Positions 2,643-46,055 of a stretch of DNA of 64,000 bases are shown piece by piece (within the stretch, counting starts at the first letter, position 1; every line of letters starts with the position of its first letter). The DNA lies in the IMG/VR virus record IMGVR_UViG_3300037628_000218, positions 29,798 to 93,797 of that record. One strand, 5' to 3'. This stretch comes from a virus. The notes beneath the pieces were generated by a model. It was not told the DNA's origin. It did no database searches and saw only the letters and a program-made list of their open reading frames with translations. A program made the position numbers and the translations under genes.

Positions 2643-3608
2643 TTAAGCTGCTTTTGGTACGTGAACTCGCGCTTTGCCTGTACCATGTGTTTTCTTGATT
2701 AGATCTGGATGGTTCTTAGCCCAGTCCTGAACATACCAAAGTTGACCACAACCACCGCCTATATCATCTTGGCCTGCTGGATCAAACATACGTACACTAT
2801 ACCCTGCTTCTAGCATCTTGTCCATAAAATCTTCAACTAACTTACGTTGACGTTGGTTAGCAGCTGATACCCCTTCATCAGCTTCACATATTACTGACAA
2901 AGTACACTCCCAAATTCCTGCTGGGAAGTGTTCACGGAGGGCGGTAACATCCTCCATAGTGTTATTCTTATCATGCACACAGTAATTGAAGAAAGGTCTA
3001 CGTCCTGTGCTACCAGCCCAGTAAGAACCCCACTGAGAAATCTCAGATAGACTTAGCTTTGCTGTCATAGGGATTAACTTATCTCTAGCTTCTTGTACTG
3101 CTTCGTGGATTGAAAACTGTAAGCCTACTTGACTTATCTCTTGGCTTAACTCACACAATTCCAACCAGTTATGATGGGTAGAGTTAGGGGCCATAGTAGA
3201 GATCAGGAGGTCAGCAGTAGGGTACTCCACATTGAGTCTCCTTATAGCTGTTTTTAGCTCCTTCCAGTTCAGCATAGGCTCACCCATAGACATGAACATT
3301 ATTTGTAGTTTATCTATATCCTTAGCGCAGATTGATTCTTCAGATTCTGCAAGTAAGATACAAGCCTTCACCTGACTGAAGATCTCGTCAGCGGTTAAGT
3401 TCCTGATAAAGAAGTTACCAGTACCGCAGAAGCGACAACCAACAGGACACCCAGATTGAGTTGAGCAACAGACTACTGTTCGATCCATGTAAGTAGGGTA
3501 CTTGTAAAGCACTGCTTCAGCTACCGCACCATTGCTTCCCTCTTGTGTGAAAACAATCTTCTTAACATTCTGATCTGAACTATGAACTACCTCTTGCTTA
3601 TCCCACAT
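2643..3608 (-). CDS. RlmN/Cfr-like class A radical SAM methyltransferase
   Basis: VVCCSTQSGCPVGCRFC (CX3CX2C plus upstream Cys), MSMGEP, FSIH, C-terminal DDIGGGCGQL. Confidence 0.88.
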   Translation of the reverse strand: MWDKQEVVHSSDQNVKKIVFTQEGSNGAVAEAVLYKYPTYMDRTVVCCSTQSGCPVGCRFCGTGNFFIRNLTADEIFSQVKACILLAESEESICAKDIDKLQIMFMSMGEPMLNWKELKTAIRRLNVEYPTADLLISTMAPNSTHHNWLELCELSQEISQVGLQFSIHEAVQEARDKLIPMTAKLSLSEISQWGSYWAGSTGRRPFFNYCVHDKNNTMEDVTALREHFPAGIWECTLSVICEADEGVSAANQRQRKLVEDFMDKMLEAGYSVRMFDPAGQDDIGGGCGQLWYVQDWAKNHPDLIKKTHGTGKARVHVPKAA

Positions 3609-3677
3609 ACTAGGTCTCCTGTATTGTTTAAGTTTTCGTTTACCTTCTCGGCTCTAAGGCAGATTACCAGTCAATGC

Positions 3678-3720
3678 TTAAGTTGAGAGTACCTTACTTA
3701 ATTTCAGATACTCTGTCAAC
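3678..3720 (-). promoter_or_regulatory. sigma70 promoter cassette, copy 1 of a 43-bp direct repeat
   Basis: TTGACA-17-TAAGGT; 41/43 identical to 4365-4407. Confidence 0.7.
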
Positions 3721-3739
3721 TACTTTTACCTAATTAACT

Positions 3740-4345
3740 TTAAATGTCCCAGCCTGTAGCTTCACGTACCATCTCAGTTAGCATCTCGTTTGCTGCTGAC
3801 CTTGCTGACCTTGCTGCTGCCTCTGCTGCCTCTGCTGACCTTGCTGCTGACCTTGCTGCTGACCTTGCTGCTGACCATGCTGCTGACCTTGCTGCTGACC
3901 TTGCTGCTGACCCTGCTGACCTTGCTGCTGACCTTGCTGCTGACCATGCTGCTGACCTTGCTGACTCCTCCCCTGTTTTTAGCCAAGTTAAGATTAACTC
4001 AAAATCTGCATCTGGGCAGTATGGTCTGATCTTTTCGATGTGAATCAAAGCCTGGCTCCTAGCAAATTGGTGTAGTATCTTATCTGCGTCTACCCAATCT
4101 ATATATTTCCTAGTAGAAGCTGCTATTTTATCAGTACCTACCACTATCTCCCCGCCAAGTTCAACCAAGTATAATATTGATCCTGGTGCGTGGTTAACTG
4201 CATCTAAGAGGTTGATAGATGCGTGTAGGCCATTTTTACATAGTTTGATCTTGCCAAGCACCTTATGGGTTGTACCCTTCCGTATTTTACGACCATCTCC
4301 GTGCCTTAATCGTCTCTCTTCCTTTGCAAAGTAAAAAGCTTGCAT
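3740..4345 (-). CDS. phage protein with N-terminal CKNGLHAS domain and C-terminal Ala-rich AARS repeats
   Basis: 201-aa ORF with RBS and its own promoter. Confidence 0.75.
   Translation of the reverse strand: MQAFYFAKEERRLRHGDGRKIRKGTTHKVLGKIKLCKNGLHASINLLDAVNHAPGSILYLVELGGEIVVGTDKIAASTRKYIDWVDADKILHQFARSQALIHIEKIRPYCPDADFELILTWLKTGEESARSAAWSAARSAARSAGSAARSAARSAAWSAARSAARSAARSAEAAEAAARSARSAANEMLTEMVREATGWDI
3791..3965. repeat. 12-nt coding tandem repeat (GCTGCTGACCTT)n encoding (AARS)n
   Basis: directly visible, with 9-nt variant units. Confidence 0.95.
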
Positions 4346-4364
4346 ACTCTGTTCTCCCCCTCAG

Positions 4365-4407
4365 TTAAGTTGAGAGTATCCTACTTAATTTCAGATACTC
4401 TGTCAAC
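4365..4407 (-). promoter_or_regulatory. sigma70 promoter cassette, copy 2
   Basis: TTGACA-17-TAGGAT. Confidence 0.7.
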
Positions 4408-4411
4408 AACT

Positions 4412-6949
4412 TTAGCTACAAGACTTCTGCCCTGTTTCTAAATCAACGTAGCAAGCTTTAGCTCCTTCGTCAGCTTCATCCTCTTCCTCCTCCTTCACTT
4501 CATTAAGGATTCCGAACCTCTTACCACCACTATTAAATGTGGTTGCTCCTTTACAACCAAGCTTATAGGCATCAATATAGATACTTTTAAACTCCTCCCA
4601 AGGCATTTCTGGGGAGACATTGATAGTTTTAGAGACAGCAGAATCAACATAGCGGGTGGACAATGCTAGAACATCTAGGTGCTCCTTAGCAGTACACTCA
4701 TTAGCAGTCTTACCCTTAACTCCCCAAGTCCCATAGGCGTAGTCAGTTACCCTCTCAACACGTTCTCCTTCATAGGTCTTGATAGTCCTATCATAGTAAT
4801 GGCTGAACACTGGCTCAATACCACCACTGATATTATCAGCTGTGAGGCTAATAGTTCCTGTAGGGGCCATGCTAAGCAAGTGGCTATTACGTATTCCCTG
4901 TGTACGTATCTTATCCTGCAACCACTGGGGGAGGGTTTTAATAAACTTACTCTCACAGTACTTGTCAACATCAAAAGCTGGGAAAGAACCCTTCTCAAGT
5001 GCTAAGTCGCAAGAGGCACTATAGGTCTCATTAGTATAAACCTGTAGGACTCCCTCATACCATTCAAGGAACTCAGGAGACCCGTAGGTGAACCCTAAAG
5101 CCTCCCCTGCATTAGCCACCCCTGTTAAGCCTAAACCCATTCTACGCTTTGTCCTACTCTCCTCTGCTTGGATCTCAAGGGGGAAGGTTGCAATATCATG
5201 AATGTTATCCATAGCCCTCACAATGTGTGGGATGTCAGCCTTGAACTGCTCCATTCCGAAGAAGAAGTTTCCATCTAAGTCAGTAAAGATATACTTAACT
5301 AGGTTCCAGCTACCTAAGAGACAGGCACCTCCTGGGGGTAAAGGCATCTCCCCGCAGTTATGAACAACCATAGAGTCTGCTATGAAGTTATGAGTTCCCT
5401 CTACAGTTAAATCATAAACATCGGTAACCTCCCCTTGCTCTATAGATACAATCTCATTTCCAGAGAGTGTCCCACCTGAAGCACTTGCTACTCTAATATT
5501 TTCCAGTTGGAGATCTCTACTACTCTCCGAAGTGAGGCTGTCAGGGTAAGCTAAACTACTACACAACTGCACCACCTTGTCACCTCCTACAAGATTCTTA
5601 GCCTCAACCCACCCTTTATCATGAACCATAACTTCATGGTTACCCGTTACACGGATAGTCTTACCATTTTGTGTAGTAACATTAATGGTTTGCGTGTCTT
5701 GCTTGCTAATCCATGAAGCAGTGGCGTTCCTTACTCCTAAAGACCCATCAGCTAACATAGTGTAAACTTGTGTTGGCTCTTTAATATCCTTGATTTTAAC
5801 TCTTCCATTTATAGTTTCTATTAAGGAGTCAGGATGCAAGCATGGATTTGTCGCCCTGATCTCCTCACAGTAGTACAAGTTGTTTAACTCGTTTATACGA
5901 TCAATGAATAGAACTCCCATATATGTTAAAGTAAGTACGCTACTCCTTACCCCAGCTAACCTCGATCAAAGTTAACTGCTGCATGTCTCCATACAGATCA
6001 GACTATATCAAGAACTCAAAGAGTTCCCACCTATTTCCACCCGCTTGGGTGTACTCCGTTGTCGGATAGTCGTTGCACGTTCAATTAAATACCTGTCGTA
6101 TAGTGTACTTAATAGCTTCGCTCAGGATTGCCCTCACCCTAGATGTTAGGGGTTCCCCTGAATTAAAGTGGTTTCGACATAAGATCACTCTTATGAAGCC
6201 CAGTATTATTTAGGTTCTGCCCAATCCCACGTTGAGCGCATTATCTCTTCCCACAAGTTCTTAACGCTAACCTGCTTATACACTCTTCCTTGGAAAGTTA
6301 GATTAAAAACCTCGTCAATACCTGAATCAGTAACACGAATAACCTTCTCCATGAACTCGTCAGTGATTGCTATGGAAAGGTTGAAAGCTTTCAAGTTGGT
6401 ATCATTTTGTTTAGCGTGAATAAACTCTTCAATATCTGGGTGGTCGATACGCAGTACTCCGATTTGCGCCCCTCGGCGATGCCCAGCACTAGCTATGGTA
6501 TTACAGATAGCATCAAAGATGTTCATAAAGCTAAGAGGCCCACTAGACTTGGAATCTAACGATACAATACGATCATCCCTTGGTCTAAGTGAAGAAAAAT
6601 CATACCCTATTCCTCCTCCAACCCGCATAGTTTGTGCTGAGTCCTTCGCCCTGTCCATAATGGAATCCATCGAGTCTTCTATGTTTTTACTAACGAAGCA
6701 ATTAAAAGGGGTTATCTGGCGTGGTGTTCCAATAGCCGCTTGAGTTCTTCCACCTCCCATAAACGCTTGGATTAGTAAAATGGCTCTAACCTTGTAGTAG
6801 TGTTCCTCGTTATCTTTTAATGCACTTGCGAACCTAGACACCCCCTCCTTGAAGGACTCCCCATTCATTCGGTATTTCATTGCATGTATTTCTTTACTAA
6901 TGGCTAATTTTGGGCCATACTCTTCAATCTTATCAATCGTATCAGACAC
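4412..6949 (-). CDS. nrdJ: class II (adenosylcobalamin-type) ribonucleotide reductase; exons 6949-6212 and 5917-4412; contains an intein; mature protein about 585 aa
   Basis: NCFV, GGGIG, RRGAQ, WAEP|GVLFID restored by splicing, TNP[intein]CGE, ACLLGS, APTGTIS, C-terminal Cys pair; no nrdB in the window. Confidence 0.88.
5357..5842 (-). mobile_element. mini-intein (162 aa, no endonuclease) at the NP/CGE active-site motif of RNR
   Basis: starts CLHPDS, block B VTGNH, block F DVYDLTV, ends VVHN followed by Cys. Confidence 0.93.
5918..6211 (-). mobile_element. ORF-less group I intron (294 nt) in nrdJ
   Basis: exon ends in U (GAACCT) pairing with GGGCTTC (P1); P AATTCAGGGGAA, Q AATCCTGAGC, R GCAACGACTA, S GATATAGTC; terminal G; splicing restores AEPGVLF. 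Confidence 0.93.
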
Positions 6950-29614: not shown

Positions 29615-30199
29615 CTAAGGTTCTGGTACAGTTATATCTACAATGAGTGGGGTTGGATCATCGGTACTAATATTGTAAATAGTGCCGTCCAAATGAACAG
29701 TTGTGAAACTGTCAGATCCCGAAGTATCGACGAAGGTGTCTATAATATTAAAAGTAATATTGAAAGACGCAGATTCTAGATAGTCATCTGTAAGTAGAAT
29801 TGGCAGTGAGTCTATACTATCAACAATAACTACAGACCCTCCTGTAGTGTTTCTTATATCTCCAAGAACTCTGTTTAACCTAAAGAATCCATGAAGCTTC
29901 TGAGCTATGCTGATAGCGTTACCACCATAGACTCGGTAATTTAGTAGGAGCTGTTTAGTTGTTTCATAAACAGTCTGATCACTACTATTGATAGTCTCTG
30001 AATAGAGCCAGCCAGATTCATCTTGAGTATCTAGTACATCAATAGTTACATAAGAGTAACCTGGTTTAGGGCCAGTTTGTCTAGCCCTTATAACTGCGGG
30101 GAGATCGGCATTAGCACCTATTAGGGACAACTCTGTTGGTAACGCTTCTCTTGCTACTAAGATAAACTTGTCTAGGATAGCGTCATAGTCTATCGCCAT
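29615..30199 (-). CDS. tail terminator/neck protein
   Basis: VIRARQTGPKP..Y motif; upstream of the sheath gene. Confidence 0.7.
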   Translation of the reverse strand: MAIDYDAILDKFILVAREALPTELSLIGANADLPAVIRARQTGPKPGYSYVTIDVLDTQDESGWLYSETINSSDQTVYETTKQLLLNYRVYGGNAISIAQKLHGFFRLNRVLGDIRNTTGGSVVIVDSIDSLPILLTDDYLESASFNITFNIIDTFVDTSGSDSFTTVHLDGTIYNISTDDPTPLIVDITVPEP

Positions 30200-42458: not shown

Positions 42459-45400
42459 TTAAAGTGATTTTACAGAAGGAAGGTTCGCACCTCTAGGCTC
42501 TAGGTCTGATACCTTTACTTGATCTACTGAGCCTACTATATCTGCTGCCAGAGTTCTTGTATGGCTCTGATTGCGTGGGACTATCCTAACTATACGAGCT
42601 GTTGAAAGGTAGTTAAATGCAGAGGCTGTGGCATCAGGCCAGTCATCTTTTCTATGAGATGATGATCTTTCTCCATCGAAGGCTTCGCTCTCCTTGAAAA
42701 ATGCGTCTAACGTTGCAGGATTAAAAGAGCTTTTAACTAAGTAGACTAGACCATTTTCAGCTGCGCTTGAGAAGGGTAGGTATCTAGTTAACTTACCGCT
42801 AGTTGTTGGCATAGGATCTTTCTTGACAACGTAACCGAGAGTTATCAATTTCCGTGCTGAGTCAGTGTATTCTGTTATACCTGCGGCTCCTGGGTCTTGC
42901 GAGAGGATCACAGTGCATTCAGTTCCATCTTGTTCTGCTTGCTTGTGTACTAGGACTTCTCGTCTGCCAGAACGCTCTCTGAACCTACCGAAGACCTTAT
43001 TCTGCTTGCAGTCCTTCTTATCATAGTTATCACTTTCGTAATCACCTATCAGGTAGAAGAAGCCATGCCTATCCTTAGCCATTTTTACAGAAGCTGTGTA
43101 ATCTGGGTGTGTGTTCTTCTCAGAGGGTTCTGTAGCTGCCTTATCCCAAGCCCTACAGTATGCTGCTCCTTCTGGAACTGTATCAACTACAGTTAACCAG
43201 CTTCTTTGGAAGTGTGAGGAGCCTTCTGGCCTAGCGTACCAGTTACCATGTAGTAATCTATCTTTTTCTATCTGAGGTAATGCGTTAAGCTGCGAGACAT
43301 AGCCAGGGTTAGCTAACCTTACTGCGGCGTTATCAAAGATAGTTCCCCCTATAAACGTAATAGTCTTAGGTGGGAAATACTCCTTTTCCCCAGTGTTAGG
43401 GTTGTTTACCCAGCAAATGGTAGGGTGAAGCTCCTCCATCTCTTTAACAGTGTCAGTGAAGTAGAGTTCGTCATTAATCATGCCGTAAAACTTTTGCACC
43501 CCAGCTTTACTCTTATCTGGAAACCCCTCATCATCTAACCACCAATCTATGAGTTGAGCAATGTAGCTATCAGGGTCAGGGTTGCAAGAGATAAACATCG
43601 TACTTTTAACTTCAGCACTAGAACGCAATCGAGACATTAAAAATGTAATTTGGTATTGTGTAAAGGCGGTTCCTTCATCAAAGTAGATTTGGGAGTACTG
43701 CTTACCTTGATGGTCATCAGCGTTTTTCTCATGTTCCATATGAGAAAACTTTATCTGTGCGCCAGAAGGAAAATGTATTTCTCGCGCATTCTCTTTTATC
43801 TTTGCTCCAAAATTTCTGTATATGCTTTTAGCTTCATTCCAGACAGAACCAGAGCCTGTTAGCATTGCCCCAGTTCTACGGAAGAAGATAGCCTCGAATT
43901 TTGGGTCATGGATTTGTAAGAGGGGTCTAAGCAGCATTAAATGGGTTTTACCCAAGGCATTACACGTAATAGTGGTCTTTAAATCCGTCTGATTTAAGAC
44001 GGTAGGTTAGTTTTTGTCTTGACCACCTTAGTATTCTTGCTGCGTCCCTAACCCCATTGTATCTTACCCCTGAAACATAAACTGGTTTCTTTTGATGGGC
44101 GTTAAGCCCGTTTCTTATATAAGGGTCATTCATAGGGTTATTGGCTGTTGTAAATAAGCCAGGGTGCTTTGCAAGAACTTCAGGGCGTTTCATAGGGTTT
44201 AGTTTGCCCATTTGAACGCCAGGTCTACCTCCACAAGAAATGTTGTAGTAGCTTTTACTCTTAACTTCATCGACACCTATAAGAAGCTCCTCTATTTCGT
44301 AAGCCTCGTCTAGATCCTTACAAACCATAAGCTGGAACTCAAAGTTTTCTCTTCCGTATTTACGGATGGCGTGACCAAAAGGGTATGGGGACGAACCGTG
44401 TTCTTTTAGTCTTCTCTTGAAGTTATTAGTTATCCCTACGTAAACCTTATTACTAGGAGATCTTGCAACGTATACTAAGTGTGTCAAAGCTTTCCTTACC
44501 ACAGCCGTAGCTGGTATCTATTACGTCTAACGCCTCGGACTATCTCATCACCCTTCACAGGGGCTGGACGCTATGTTGTCGTTACAAATTATATGACAAT
44601 AGGTTGTTCCCTCTGGTTTAGAGGTGTACTTCATATTGAATTTGTATTTCATACTGTTAGGTATGTCAGTTAAGTAGGGTCGGAGGAGATCAAAAAACAG
44701 TTTAAGGTTAGTCGCATTTAAGTATATGCAATAACTTCCTTTGGCTTTGTAGATCTTGACATCTATATTGAACCGTTGTTTGAACATTCTTTGTATTGTG
44801 AGCTGGGAGTTATAATCAAGATTGTGTGTAGCTAAGCTGCCATGCCTACTAACGCTACCATTAGCCTTCACATGAACTGATAAGCTACCATTGTCCAACC
44901 ACCAAAGTAAAAGACCTATAGGTGTTATCCTGTCCGCAACATACTTAGAAACATATTTGATGCCATTAGAGTTTAACACCCTACTATGATCCACATGTCT
45001 GTTTGTTTGCAATTTACAGCTTACTTGAGAGTAAGTATGCTCTCCATAAGTTGTAAGTCTTTTGTAGTCATATCTAGTGGTAGTCTTAAGACCCCATGAT
45101 GTGTATAGAGCTTCTAGCCAAACAACGTAGTCTCTTTGCTTATTGGCATGTGTGCTTTCTACCCAATGCCCTGTACTACTATTCCTTCTGAGATACCCAT
45201 TGCCCAGGATGTTTCCAAATAGGCTATAATGTATCTCCTTTTTACTTAACTGTTTCATAGTAGAATCCTCTACTTTAGATTTTAACGACTAACTAGTCTC
45301 TGAACCGTCCTACTCTGTAGGCTTGGCTGCCGATTGCCTGTTAAGGGTTCCAGCAATTCATCCAGTTTTTCTTTTGATTCTTACGAAAAAGGGAAGCCGA

Positions 45401-45514
45401 AAAAGGCCATTTTCATTAACTTCCCGCAGCTCCTCCATACACCACAATATCCTGTGGAGCGTTCATAGCTATTTCTTGTGCGCCTTTTTGGGGGCGGTAT
45501 GTATTTTGTTCCAC
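42459..45514 (-). CDS. terL: terminase large subunit; exons 45514-45419 (32 aa) and 43952-42459; spliced protein 529 aa
   Basis: exon 1 MEQNTYRPQKGAQ...VVYGGAAGS joins GKTH (Walker A); Walker B IYFDE; CNPDP; RAWDKA; KDDWPDA. Confidence 0.93.
43960..44502 (-). CDS. intron-encoded GIY-YIG homing endonuclease (P9 region)
   Basis: VY-x9-YVG, RLKEH, AYEIE, YN; NPM repeats and C-terminal HTH. Confidence 0.88.
   Translation of the reverse strand: MVRKALTHLVYVARSPSNKVYVGITNNFKRRLKEHGSSPYPFGHAIRKYGRENFEFQLMVCKDLDEAYEIEELLIGVDEVKSKSYYNISCGGRPGVQMGKLNPMKRPEVLAKHPGLFTTANNPMNDPYIRNGLNAHQKKPVYVSGVRYNGVRDAARILRWSRQKLTYRLKSDGFKDHYYV
44548..45258 (-). CDS. intron-encoded LAGLIDADG (I-SceI-type) protein, predicted nuclease-dead
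   Basis: motifs FGNILGNG and LLLWWLDNG; QRDYVVWL, ITPIGL, IPNSMKYK. Confidence 0.85.
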   Translation of the reverse strand: MKQLSKKEIHYSLFGNILGNGYLRRNSSTGHWVESTHANKQRDYVVWLEALYTSWGLKTTTRYDYKRLTTYGEHTYSQVSCKLQTNRHVDHSRVLNSNGIKYVSKYVADRITPIGLLLWWLDNGSLSVHVKANGSVSRHGSLATHNLDYNSQLTIQRMFKQRFNIDVKIYKAKGSYCIYLNATNLKLFFDLLRPYLTDIPNSMKYKFNMKYTSKPEGTTYCHIICNDNIASSPCEG

Positions 45515-45604
45515 TTTGCTCTCCTGTTATTGGTGTGAGGTGTGCCTAAGGAAGACTTAATGCTTCACGGCAACTATTATTATATGTGATAGTCTGCTAA
45601 GATA

Positions 45605-45679
45605 TGGCTCCCACGGCTGGACTTGAACCAACACTGCTAGAGTCAAAGTCTAGTGTCCTACCAATTAGACGACATGGGA
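45605..45679 (-). tRNA. tRNA-Gln(TTG)
   Basis: CTAGA-CTTTGAC-TCTAG, GGTTCAAGTCC, CCA. Confidence 0.92.
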
Positions 45680-45685
45680 ATTGGT

Positions 45686-45762
45686 TGGCTCCGAGGGTAG
45701 GGGTCGAACCTACGAAATCTTGGTTAACAGCCAAGAGCATTGCCGCTCTGCTCCACCTCGGA
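45686..45762 (-). tRNA. tRNA-Asn(GTT)
   Basis: CTTGG-CTGTTAA-CCAAG, GGTTCGACCCC, CCA. Confidence 0.92.
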
Positions 45763-45768
45763 ATGATT

Positions 45769-45862
45769 TGGTGCCAGCATACCGAGTCTCACGGCGGATC
45801 TACAAGGCTCTCGTTGGTCACCTAAGAGCGTCCTTTTACTAGGGTTCACAACTTCTGCTGTG
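45769..45862 (-). ncRNA. CCA-ended tRNA-like RNA inside the tRNA cluster
   Basis: CAGCA/TGCTG stem then GCACCA; CCG-TGAGACT-CGG T-like arm; GCTCTT/GAGAGC hairpin; 5' end approximate. Confidence 0.55.
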
Positions 45863-45897
45863 ATACTATATCGGGGTAAGCCCCGAGTCCCTGTATT

Positions 45898-45973
45898 TGG
45901 TAGCGGAAGTGCGAGTTGAACGCATTGGGCTTAGGTTATGAGCCTAGCTGGGAACCCTCCCTATACGACCGCG
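45898..45973 (-). tRNA. tRNA-Met(CAT), initiator-like with atypical D arm
   Basis: CGCGG start with 1:72 mismatch, TAGG-CTCATAA-CCTA, GCGTTCAACTCGC, ACCA. Confidence 0.8.
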
Positions 45974-45979
45974 ATTGTT

Positions 45980-46055
45980 TGGAGCTTACAGTAGGTCTCG
46001 AACCCACGACATCCTCTTTACAAGAGAGGTGCTCTACCAGCTGAGCTATGCAAGC
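45980..46055 (-). tRNA. tRNA-Thr(TGT)
   Basis: CCTCT-CTTGTAA-AGAGG, GGTTCGAGACC, CCA. Confidence 0.93.

Follow-up and report, generated by a model that had tools for sequence, protein, structure and literature searches.

In the window analysed here, a stretch of 64,000 nt of viral DNA (IMG/VR record IMGVR_UViG_3300037628_000218, positions 29,798 to 93,797), the gene for the large terminase subunit, terL, is interrupted by a group I intron that holds two open reading frames (ORFs) of unrelated nuclease families around a single ribozyme core. One ORF encodes a GIY-YIG protein and the other a LAGLIDADG protein in which Asn replaces the metal-binding Asp at both catalytic sites. We denote the latter as the N/N protein and its relatives with both Asp residues as D/D. 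In our preferred explanation, to which we assign a probability of roughly 0.5, the N/N protein would be a redundant passenger that evolves under relaxed constraint within an older GIY-YIG intron. Among the observations behind this explanation, a homologous intron occurs at the same codon boundary with the GIY-YIG gene and no LAGLIDADG gene, and the terminal branch of the N/N protein is accelerated. A first-pass annotation of the window, made by a model from the sequence alone, had read the double replacement differently, namely as a likely selected inactivation that would leave homing to the GIY-YIG enzyme and make the LAGLIDADG protein a maturase or a nucleic-acid-binding regulator.

The terL intron and its splice junction

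The protein encoded by terL is a T4-type large subunit, having an N-terminal ATPase domain with the Walker A motif and a C-terminal RNase H-like nuclease domain according to Pfam. The intron lies between the Ser and Gly codons of the Walker A motif, which is whole only once the exons are joined (GGAAGS-GKT). The closest terL relatives, on viral contigs L026-L029 (73-78% amino-acid identity), are uninterrupted in 4/4 cases; their matches to the two exons abut with zero gap, and the translation of exon 1 matches their N-termini, stopping exactly at the junction. Since these relatives are contiguous at the predicted point, they fix the splice junction by sequence comparison, and the insertion in the Walker A motif given by the first-pass annotation holds. 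The contiguous relatives also give indirect support to the predicted ligation of position 45419 to position 43952 by splicing. In the complete relative G001, whose terL is 78% identical, the gene is likewise uninterrupted and neither nuclease gene is present, as would fit a gain of the intron within the lineage of the window phage. The coordinates of all features are collected in Table 1.

A permissive Rfam scan of positions 43800-45600 returned one match to the Intron_gpI model, at positions 45413-45205 (33.7 bits, E 2e-6), which covers P1 to P7 up to the R element. This value falls below the Rfam gathering score of 50 because an ORF splits the core. At the gathering threshold Rfam misses the terL intron and also most of the introns that hold relatives of the LAGLIDADG gene. 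The 3' half of the core was located by alignment to the homologous intron on viral contig L042. All core helices pair, with compensatory changes relative to L042 in P1, P3 and P6. The P1 guide sequence pairs with the final 7 nt of exon 1, includes a U.G pair at the 5' splice site, and shows covariation with the exon when the window and L042 are compared. The 3' end of the intron is a terminal G. Helix P9.0 has 6 bp in the window and 8 bp in L042.

The terL intron is trimmed compared to that of L042. The hairpins P7.1/P7.2, between P7 and the 3' strand of P3 (P3'), are absent and the LAGLIDADG ORF occupies their place; the long P5 extension of L042 is also absent. The hairpin with the ribosome-binding site (RBS) of the LAGLIDADG gene begins 20 nt after the R element. 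At the other end of the gene, the final 7 codons and the stop (44571-44548) overlap P3' and P8, and the S element comes next. The coordinates agree with the earlier placement of the LAGLIDADG ORF between R and P3' with its last codons over P3'/P8, and Pfam matches to LAGLIDADG_2 and GIY-YIG bear out that the two ORFs of this one core are unrelated. Overall, we have high confidence in the anatomy as described.

The host record is a complete virus genome of 93.8 kb with terminal repeats. The only DNA run that contains it is from marine sediment, which is probably the source sample; among runs recorded as RNA, none contains it. A megablast search of the intron region against cultured phages gave no match. 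At the protein level, all matches to cultured phages were distant: identity did not exceed 25% for the LAGLIDADG protein and 48.5% for terL, and for the GIY-YIG protein it reached at most 36%, over part of the sequence. No close counterpart of the intron or of its two encoded proteins was found among cultured phages.

Table 1 Features of the interrupted terL gene in window coordinates
Feature	Position	Strand	Details
terL exon 1	45419..45514	-	32 codons from GTG (start tentative); ends GGAAGS, first half of Walker A
Group I intron	43953..45418	-	1,466 nt; single IA2-like core, two ORFs
5' core half: P1, P2, P3, P4, P5, P6, P7 5' strand (R element)	45294..45418	-	Rfam match, helix check
RBS hairpin	45260..45273	-	14 nt, 5 bp, contains GAGG; 1 nt before the LAGLIDADG ATG
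LAGLIDADG_2 ORF (I-SceI/I-WcaI-like)	44548..45258	-	236 aa; Pfam 68.6 bits (cut-off 25)
Codon 20, AAT (Asn)	45199..45201	-	Position of I-SceI D44
Codon 123, AAT (Asn)	44890..44892	-	Position of I-SceI D145
3' core half	44537..44571	-	P3' 44571-44564; P8 hairpin 44562-44551, GNRA-type loop; P7'/S 44546-44537
P9.0 5' strand	44531..44536	-	Pairs with 43959-43954, closing the loop around the GIY-YIG ORF
GIY-YIG ORF	43960..44502	-	180 aa from GTG; in P9 loop; Pfam GIY-YIG 36.7 bits
P9.0 3' strand and terminal intron G	43953..43959	-	Helix check
terL exon 2	42459..43952	-	GKT... to stop; Terminase_6N 96.8 bits, Terminase_6C 34.6 bits

The two encoded proteins and the origin of the intron

The GIY-YIG protein scores above the Pfam cut-off of 22.6 bits for its nuclease domain and has a C-terminal I-TevI_DNA-bd domain (30.4 bits, cut-off 27) at residues 132-175. 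Its Arg and His align to R27 and H31 of I-TevI. The Glu and the YN motif were assigned by visual inspection alone, and both are kept in the L042 homologue; with this qualification, the enzyme appears intact as previously annotated. Its location after S in P9 was also correct, but the earlier length of 180 aa is probably not. A start at TTG 44487 has an AAGGA Shine-Dalgarno sequence 5 nt upstream, yields 175 aa and matches the N-terminus of the L042 homologue, and would seem more likely than the GTG.

Homologues of the GIY-YIG protein, 45% identical, are found on three viral contigs (L042-L044) in an intron at the same position. The terL genes of these contigs are only ~25% identical to that of the window and are interrupted at the identical Walker A codon boundary. 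Because the same intron and ORF recur at the same site in such a distant terL, the GIY-YIG enzyme is the natural candidate for homing and would cleave intron-less terL.

The L042 intron matches the Rfam model over its full length (48.8 bits), with 72% identity to the window in P1-P2 and 91% in P8-P9.0. It carries the GIY-YIG ORF in P9, has intact P7.1/P7.2 hairpins, and contains no LAGLIDADG gene. An exact-pattern scan of viral contigs for the P8-P7'-P9.0 stretch returned only the L042-L044 family. A GIY-only intron at the same site, with P7.1/P7.2 where the window has its LAGLIDADG gene, implies that the GIY-YIG intron was the original unit and that the LAGLIDADG gene was added later, an order of events that we consider likely. 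Moreover, since the backbone intron exists without the LAGLIDADG protein, this protein is not inherently required for splicing, which counts against the maturase role suggested for it in the first-pass annotation.

The exon edge may hold a further trace of the intron's history. Exon 1 ends with the codon AGT in the window; the four intron-less relatives all have TCT at this place, and L042 has GGT (Gly) (window positions 45419-45424 were compared to L026 positions 3995-4000). It is possible that the Ser codon AGT, in place of TCT, reflects co-conversion from a donor followed by one change back to Ser.

In a phmmer search against the Protein Data Bank (PDB), the LAGLIDADG protein matched I-SceI (E 9e-7), with N20 aligned on D44 and N123 on D145. 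Hence, each LAGLIDADG helix ends in Asn where the family has an acidic, metal-binding residue. The neighbouring D122 is retained, as are the lysines that align with K122 and K223 of I-SceI. An AlphaFold2 (AF2) model built with 80 homologues has a predicted local distance difference test (pLDDT) value of 91.7 and is disordered only at residues 216-236, the tail that overlaps the ribozyme core. The predicted fold has two LAGLIDADG helices in a pseudo-dimeric alpha-beta-beta-alpha-beta-beta-alpha arrangement, and the best structural matches by Foldseek are I-WcaI and I-SceI (6x1j, 1r7m), with template modelling (TM) scores of 0.66-0.73. The reading of Asn at both metal-binding positions, the coordinates of the two AAT codons, and the unbroken ORF of 236 codons behind a GAGG ribosome-binding site (here part of the RBS hairpin) were all correct in the first-pass annotation.

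We compared the two catalytic positions among the best 150 cluster representatives plus the close homologues. The seven close homologues, which are 56-65% identical across the full alignment and 60-70% identical by BLAST, carry both Asp residues without exception. D/D is found in 157 of about 165 complete aligned domains, and N/N only in the window protein. About nine domains have lost one or both Asp residues; they are scattered singleton lineages, about 5% of representatives, and form no conserved clade. Such an alignment had been proposed in the first-pass annotation in order to see whether N20 and N123 accompany a second nuclease gene; it gave D/D in the relatives, and no N/N relative was found. 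The N/N state is, from this comparison, derived and non-random, because Asp occupies both sites in 7/7 close homologues and no other columns of the family are as conserved as the two that changed. In I-CreI and enzymes related to it, replacement of Asp by Asn leaves DNA binding intact but abolishes cleavage. The acidic residues at these positions have been described as essential for catalysis (PMC3384342). Since both are replaced, the window protein has very likely lost its nuclease activity.

Relatives of the LAGLIDADG protein on viral and metagenome contigs (L001-L025) are never in terL and never beside this GIY-YIG gene. They reside in IA2-like introns of genes for DNA polymerase A, P22-type coat, tape-measure or minor-tail, and GHKL-like proteins. 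In most of these introns the ORF follows R immediately and is preceded by a comparable RBS hairpin, and in some it lies in P6. A hairpin that contains the Shine-Dalgarno sequence stands right before the start codon in most of this clade (upstream of the ORFs in L003-L020). This suggests that the RBS hairpin is a shared translational control that travels with the LAGLIDADG ORF.

One of these relatives is itself part of a two-ORF group I intron, at positions 433-2172 of L006 in a GHKL-ATPase-like host gene. An unrelated ORF in its P5 region (529-1314) encodes 261 aa with CxxC pairs and a weak winged-helix match. The LAGLIDADG homologue follows the R element (1365-2057); it is 60% identical to the window protein, D/D, and apparently active as judged from these residues. 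With this second case, two-ORF introns recur in the group.

Constraint on the N/N protein and competing explanations

We propose that the terL intron is a two-ORF ('biorfic') group I intron. Its mobile unit, adapted to the Walker A codons of terL, would consist of the ribozyme backbone and the GIY-YIG gene in the P9 loop. Self-splicing of the ribozyme would restore GGAAGS-GKT, and the GIY-YIG enzyme would cut intron-less terL alleles of co-infecting phages and thereby drive homing. The LAGLIDADG gene would have arrived later, from a clade that inhabits peripheral loops of IA2-type introns in many phage genes, and would have replaced the P7.1/P7.2 hairpins. With both metal-binding Asp residues gone, its product would no longer be a nuclease; it would be redundant beside the GIY-YIG enzyme and without a cognate target of its own. 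It would then be a passenger under relaxed constraint, in the early decay phase of the homing-endonuclease life cycle, with no current function and unneeded for splicing.

The terminal branch of the N/N protein measures 0.59 substitutions per site compared to 0.10-0.23 in its sisters, that is, 2.5-4 times longer. The only other close relative that lacks a catalytic Asp, P0009 (D20S), has a branch of 0.51 compared to 0.14. The most conserved third of sites takes up 21% of the lineage-specific changes in the window protein, against 0-12% in the intact D/D sisters and a neutral expectation of 33%, and P0009 shows the same relaxed pattern of acceleration and constraint. Other conserved positions have also drifted in the N/N protein (T38A, R186K, F147L, K187L). 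Pairwise dN/dS was calculated against L006 and L007, the nearest homologues with available DNA; dS was saturated, with dN of ~0.37. Branch length and conserved-site share would be equally compatible with relaxed constraint and with a change of function. We consider a passenger in early decay at least as likely as a selected maturase. Of the selected inactivation claimed earlier, the non-random nature of the N/N state stands; its selection is not borne out, considering the accelerated branch, the partly relaxed constraint, and the lack of a dead clade among the homologues compared.

Several observations weigh against a passenger. The 21% share is below the neutral 33%, though not significantly (p = 0.07). 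The same Asp-to-Asn change occurred at the two most conserved columns of the family; its chance is ~0.02-0.05 assuming that the observed changes spread evenly, at a locus that was chosen for this very feature. The paired change looks more like a specific loss of catalysis than general decay. The GC content at third codon positions (GC3) of the LAGLIDADG gene is 0.40, the same as in the phage's own genes, compared to 0.14 in the AT-rich L006 homologue; this match, the long branch, and the open frame together indicate that the gene has long been resident without breaking. That 236 codons have stayed open despite the long branch would argue that the frame has long been under selection. The fold is predicted with full confidence (by the AF2 value above), the equivalents of K122 and K223 are kept, and an intron without P7.1/P7.2 and the long P5 could need help in folding.

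Much of this evidence favours the division of labour of the first-pass annotation, in which the dead LAGLIDADG protein would have been selected as a maturase for the trimmed ribozyme or as an RNA- or DNA-binding regulator, leaving homing to the GIY-YIG enzyme. The open frame, the phage-like composition, the confident fold, and the trimmed core all agree with it, as does the retained RBS hairpin. Of the 51 strongly conserved columns 44 are kept, and both catalytic Asp residues are among the seven changed, each to the isosteric Asn. A precedent is given by mitochondrial LAGLIDADG maturases, which lost cleavage by very few substitutions (PMC3384342 and its refs 47 and 50). However, a protein maintained for a new role would have to be reconciled with a singular N/N state, a branch as accelerated and partly relaxed as that of the D20S relative, and the drift at four further conserved positions. 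A homologous backbone intron exists without the protein. In addition, because P3' and P8 lie within the tail of the ORF, its translation would unfold the core. We know of no phage group I intron that needs a maturase. The division of labour in its broad form appears doubtful to us. Its stricter form, in which the N/N protein is a domesticated dead nucleic-acid-binding protein needed by the trimmed ribozyme while the active GIY-YIG enzyme handles mobility, we regard as unlikely. If it were true, the phage would rely on a protein from within the intron to make its packaging ATPase, and the N/N protein would be, to our knowledge, the first maturase or splicing regulator of a group I intron to be encoded by a phage. 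The wider roles raised in the first-pass annotation, gating of packaging and action in trans on the nrdJ intron, are conjectural.

The remaining alternatives concern activity, acquisition, and architecture. The LAGLIDADG protein might still cut or nick DNA despite N20 and N123, e.g. by means of D122 or a water-mediated metal, and the intron would then have two working nucleases. Retention of D122, of both active-site lysine equivalents, and of the whole predicted fold would allow for this, although both canonical metal ligands are gone and the Asp-to-Asn mutants of I-CreI and its relatives bind without cleaving. With D/D kept in nearly all complete aligned domains (157 of about 165) and the acidic residues described as essential (PMC3384342), we regard residual cleavage as very improbable. 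A mosaic origin of the intron is not exclusive of the other readings, as it concerns the route of acquisition only: the LAGLIDADG gene, instead of entering as a bare ORF cassette, would have come with the whole P3-to-P3' block of an L006/L007-type intron by recombination between conserved core sequences, while P1-P2, P8-P9 and the GIY-YIG gene would derive from the terL intron. Both P3 strands are indeed L006/L007-like, being one compensatory pair apart compared to three for L042. P5 is short as in L007 and unlike the long P5 of L042, and the hairpin ahead of the ATG likewise resembles those of L006/L007. The R element, however, is identical to that of L042 and differs from L006/L007, and identity from P3 to R is 73% to L007 and 86% to L042 (over window positions, ignoring the P5 insertion of L042), which leaves the mosaic signal ambiguous. 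The P3-to-R elements are also conserved across all IA2 introns. We hold this route to be a tentative suggestion of rather low probability.

A twintron, in which one intron with a core and an ORF would be nested in another that has both as well, might be suspected from two ORFs of unrelated families, and the two nucleases in the polymerase region of phage phiNIT1 were explained by two introns, in that case sequential (PMC11878797). The terL intron gave one Intron_gpI match even with E values up to 10, and has a single R and a single S element. Its non-coding space amounts to 160 + 45 + 7 nt, for all of which one core accounts; the 45 nt before and 7 nt after the GIY-YIG ORF leave no room for a second core. 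We rejected the twintron on these grounds, and the single core, which the first-pass annotation had suggested checking by a covariance-model search for a nested second one, is upheld. An assembly error was also rejected, considering that two independent AAT codons lie within an otherwise coherent ORF.

Some neighbouring features of the window were also recorded. Three tRNA genes lie directly upstream of terL (45608-46055, - strand), and a fourth is found at 2166-2240. The gene for a class II ribonucleotide reductase (nrdJ, 4412-6949, - strand) is interrupted twice: by a group I intron at 6221-5979 that has P7.1/P7.2 and no ORF (Rfam 72.7 bits) and, ~25 codons past the intron, by a mini-intein of ~160 aa in the NPC|GE active-site motif. 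An ORF at 3740-4345 (- strand) encodes 201 aa, the C-terminal third of which is a run of short SAAR/SAAW-type repeats.

Comparison with known systems

Two-ORF introns and nuclease-dead LAGLIDADG proteins are already known from fungal mitochondria; their combination within one core in a phage is unusual. In our literature search, neither a phage intron that combines a single core with two nuclease families nor a phage LAGLIDADG protein lacking both catalytic Asp residues came up. The locus offers natural comparisons in the form of the same intron with GIY-YIG only, intron-less sister phages, and D/D homologues, one of them in another two-ORF intron. It is therefore a compact system for asking how nuclease genes invade occupied introns and what becomes of a redundant gene, and it also bears on whether the loss of catalysis can be a first step towards a maturase.

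In its GIY-YIG part the terL intron resembles the T4 td intron with I-TevI, which is also a phage IA2-type intron and whose GIY-YIG enzyme likewise has a C-terminal DNA-binding domain of the I-TevI type. The ORF of the td intron sits in the P6 region, whereas that of the window sits in P9 of a terL intron, encodes a shorter protein (175-180 aa), and is accompanied by a second ORF.

The two-ORF arrangement is most similar to the biorfic group I introns nad1-i4 and cox1-i7 of Podospora anserina mitochondria (cited in PMC4964425). These also have one core with two ORFs, of which the second joined a one-ORF intron as an independent mobile element, and one-ORF and two-ORF versions of the same intron are found in different genomes. 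Those introns are from fungal mitochondria; the terL intron is from a phage and combines two distinct nuclease families, and its added member appears to be catalytically dead. The N/N protein is comparable to the yeast mitochondrial bI2 and bI3 maturases, which are intron-encoded two-motif LAGLIDADG proteins that lost cleavage through few substitutions and kept the fold (PMC3384342). Maturase activity has been demonstrated for those proteins; the window protein is of the I-SceI (LAGLIDADG_2) type, is from a phage, and stands beside an apparently intact nuclease gene.

In Bastillevirinae phages, both terL and polymerase genes have been reported to contain group I introns and genes for nucleases (PMC11878797). 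There, terL is a recurrent intron host as well, and most introns have one nuclease ORF or none; a phiNIT1-type polymerase intron has a LAGLIDADG_2 ORF, which was a weak match in our protein search. The two-nuclease case among these phages is explained by two separate introns, in contrast to the one core of the window. Lastly, the Walker A codons of terL join the sites that are common to introns and inteins. The terL genes of L031 (~3008-4000) and L033 (~2776-4000 and 4238-4470), 47-49% identical to that of the window, carry a LAGLIDADG-type intein at Walker A, and in L033 the gene has a further group I intron (99.7 bits) deeper within it and is immediately preceded by a free-standing GIY-YIG gene. 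Such terminase P-loop inteins share the insertion hot spot with the terL intron but are removed by protein splicing and not by RNA splicing.

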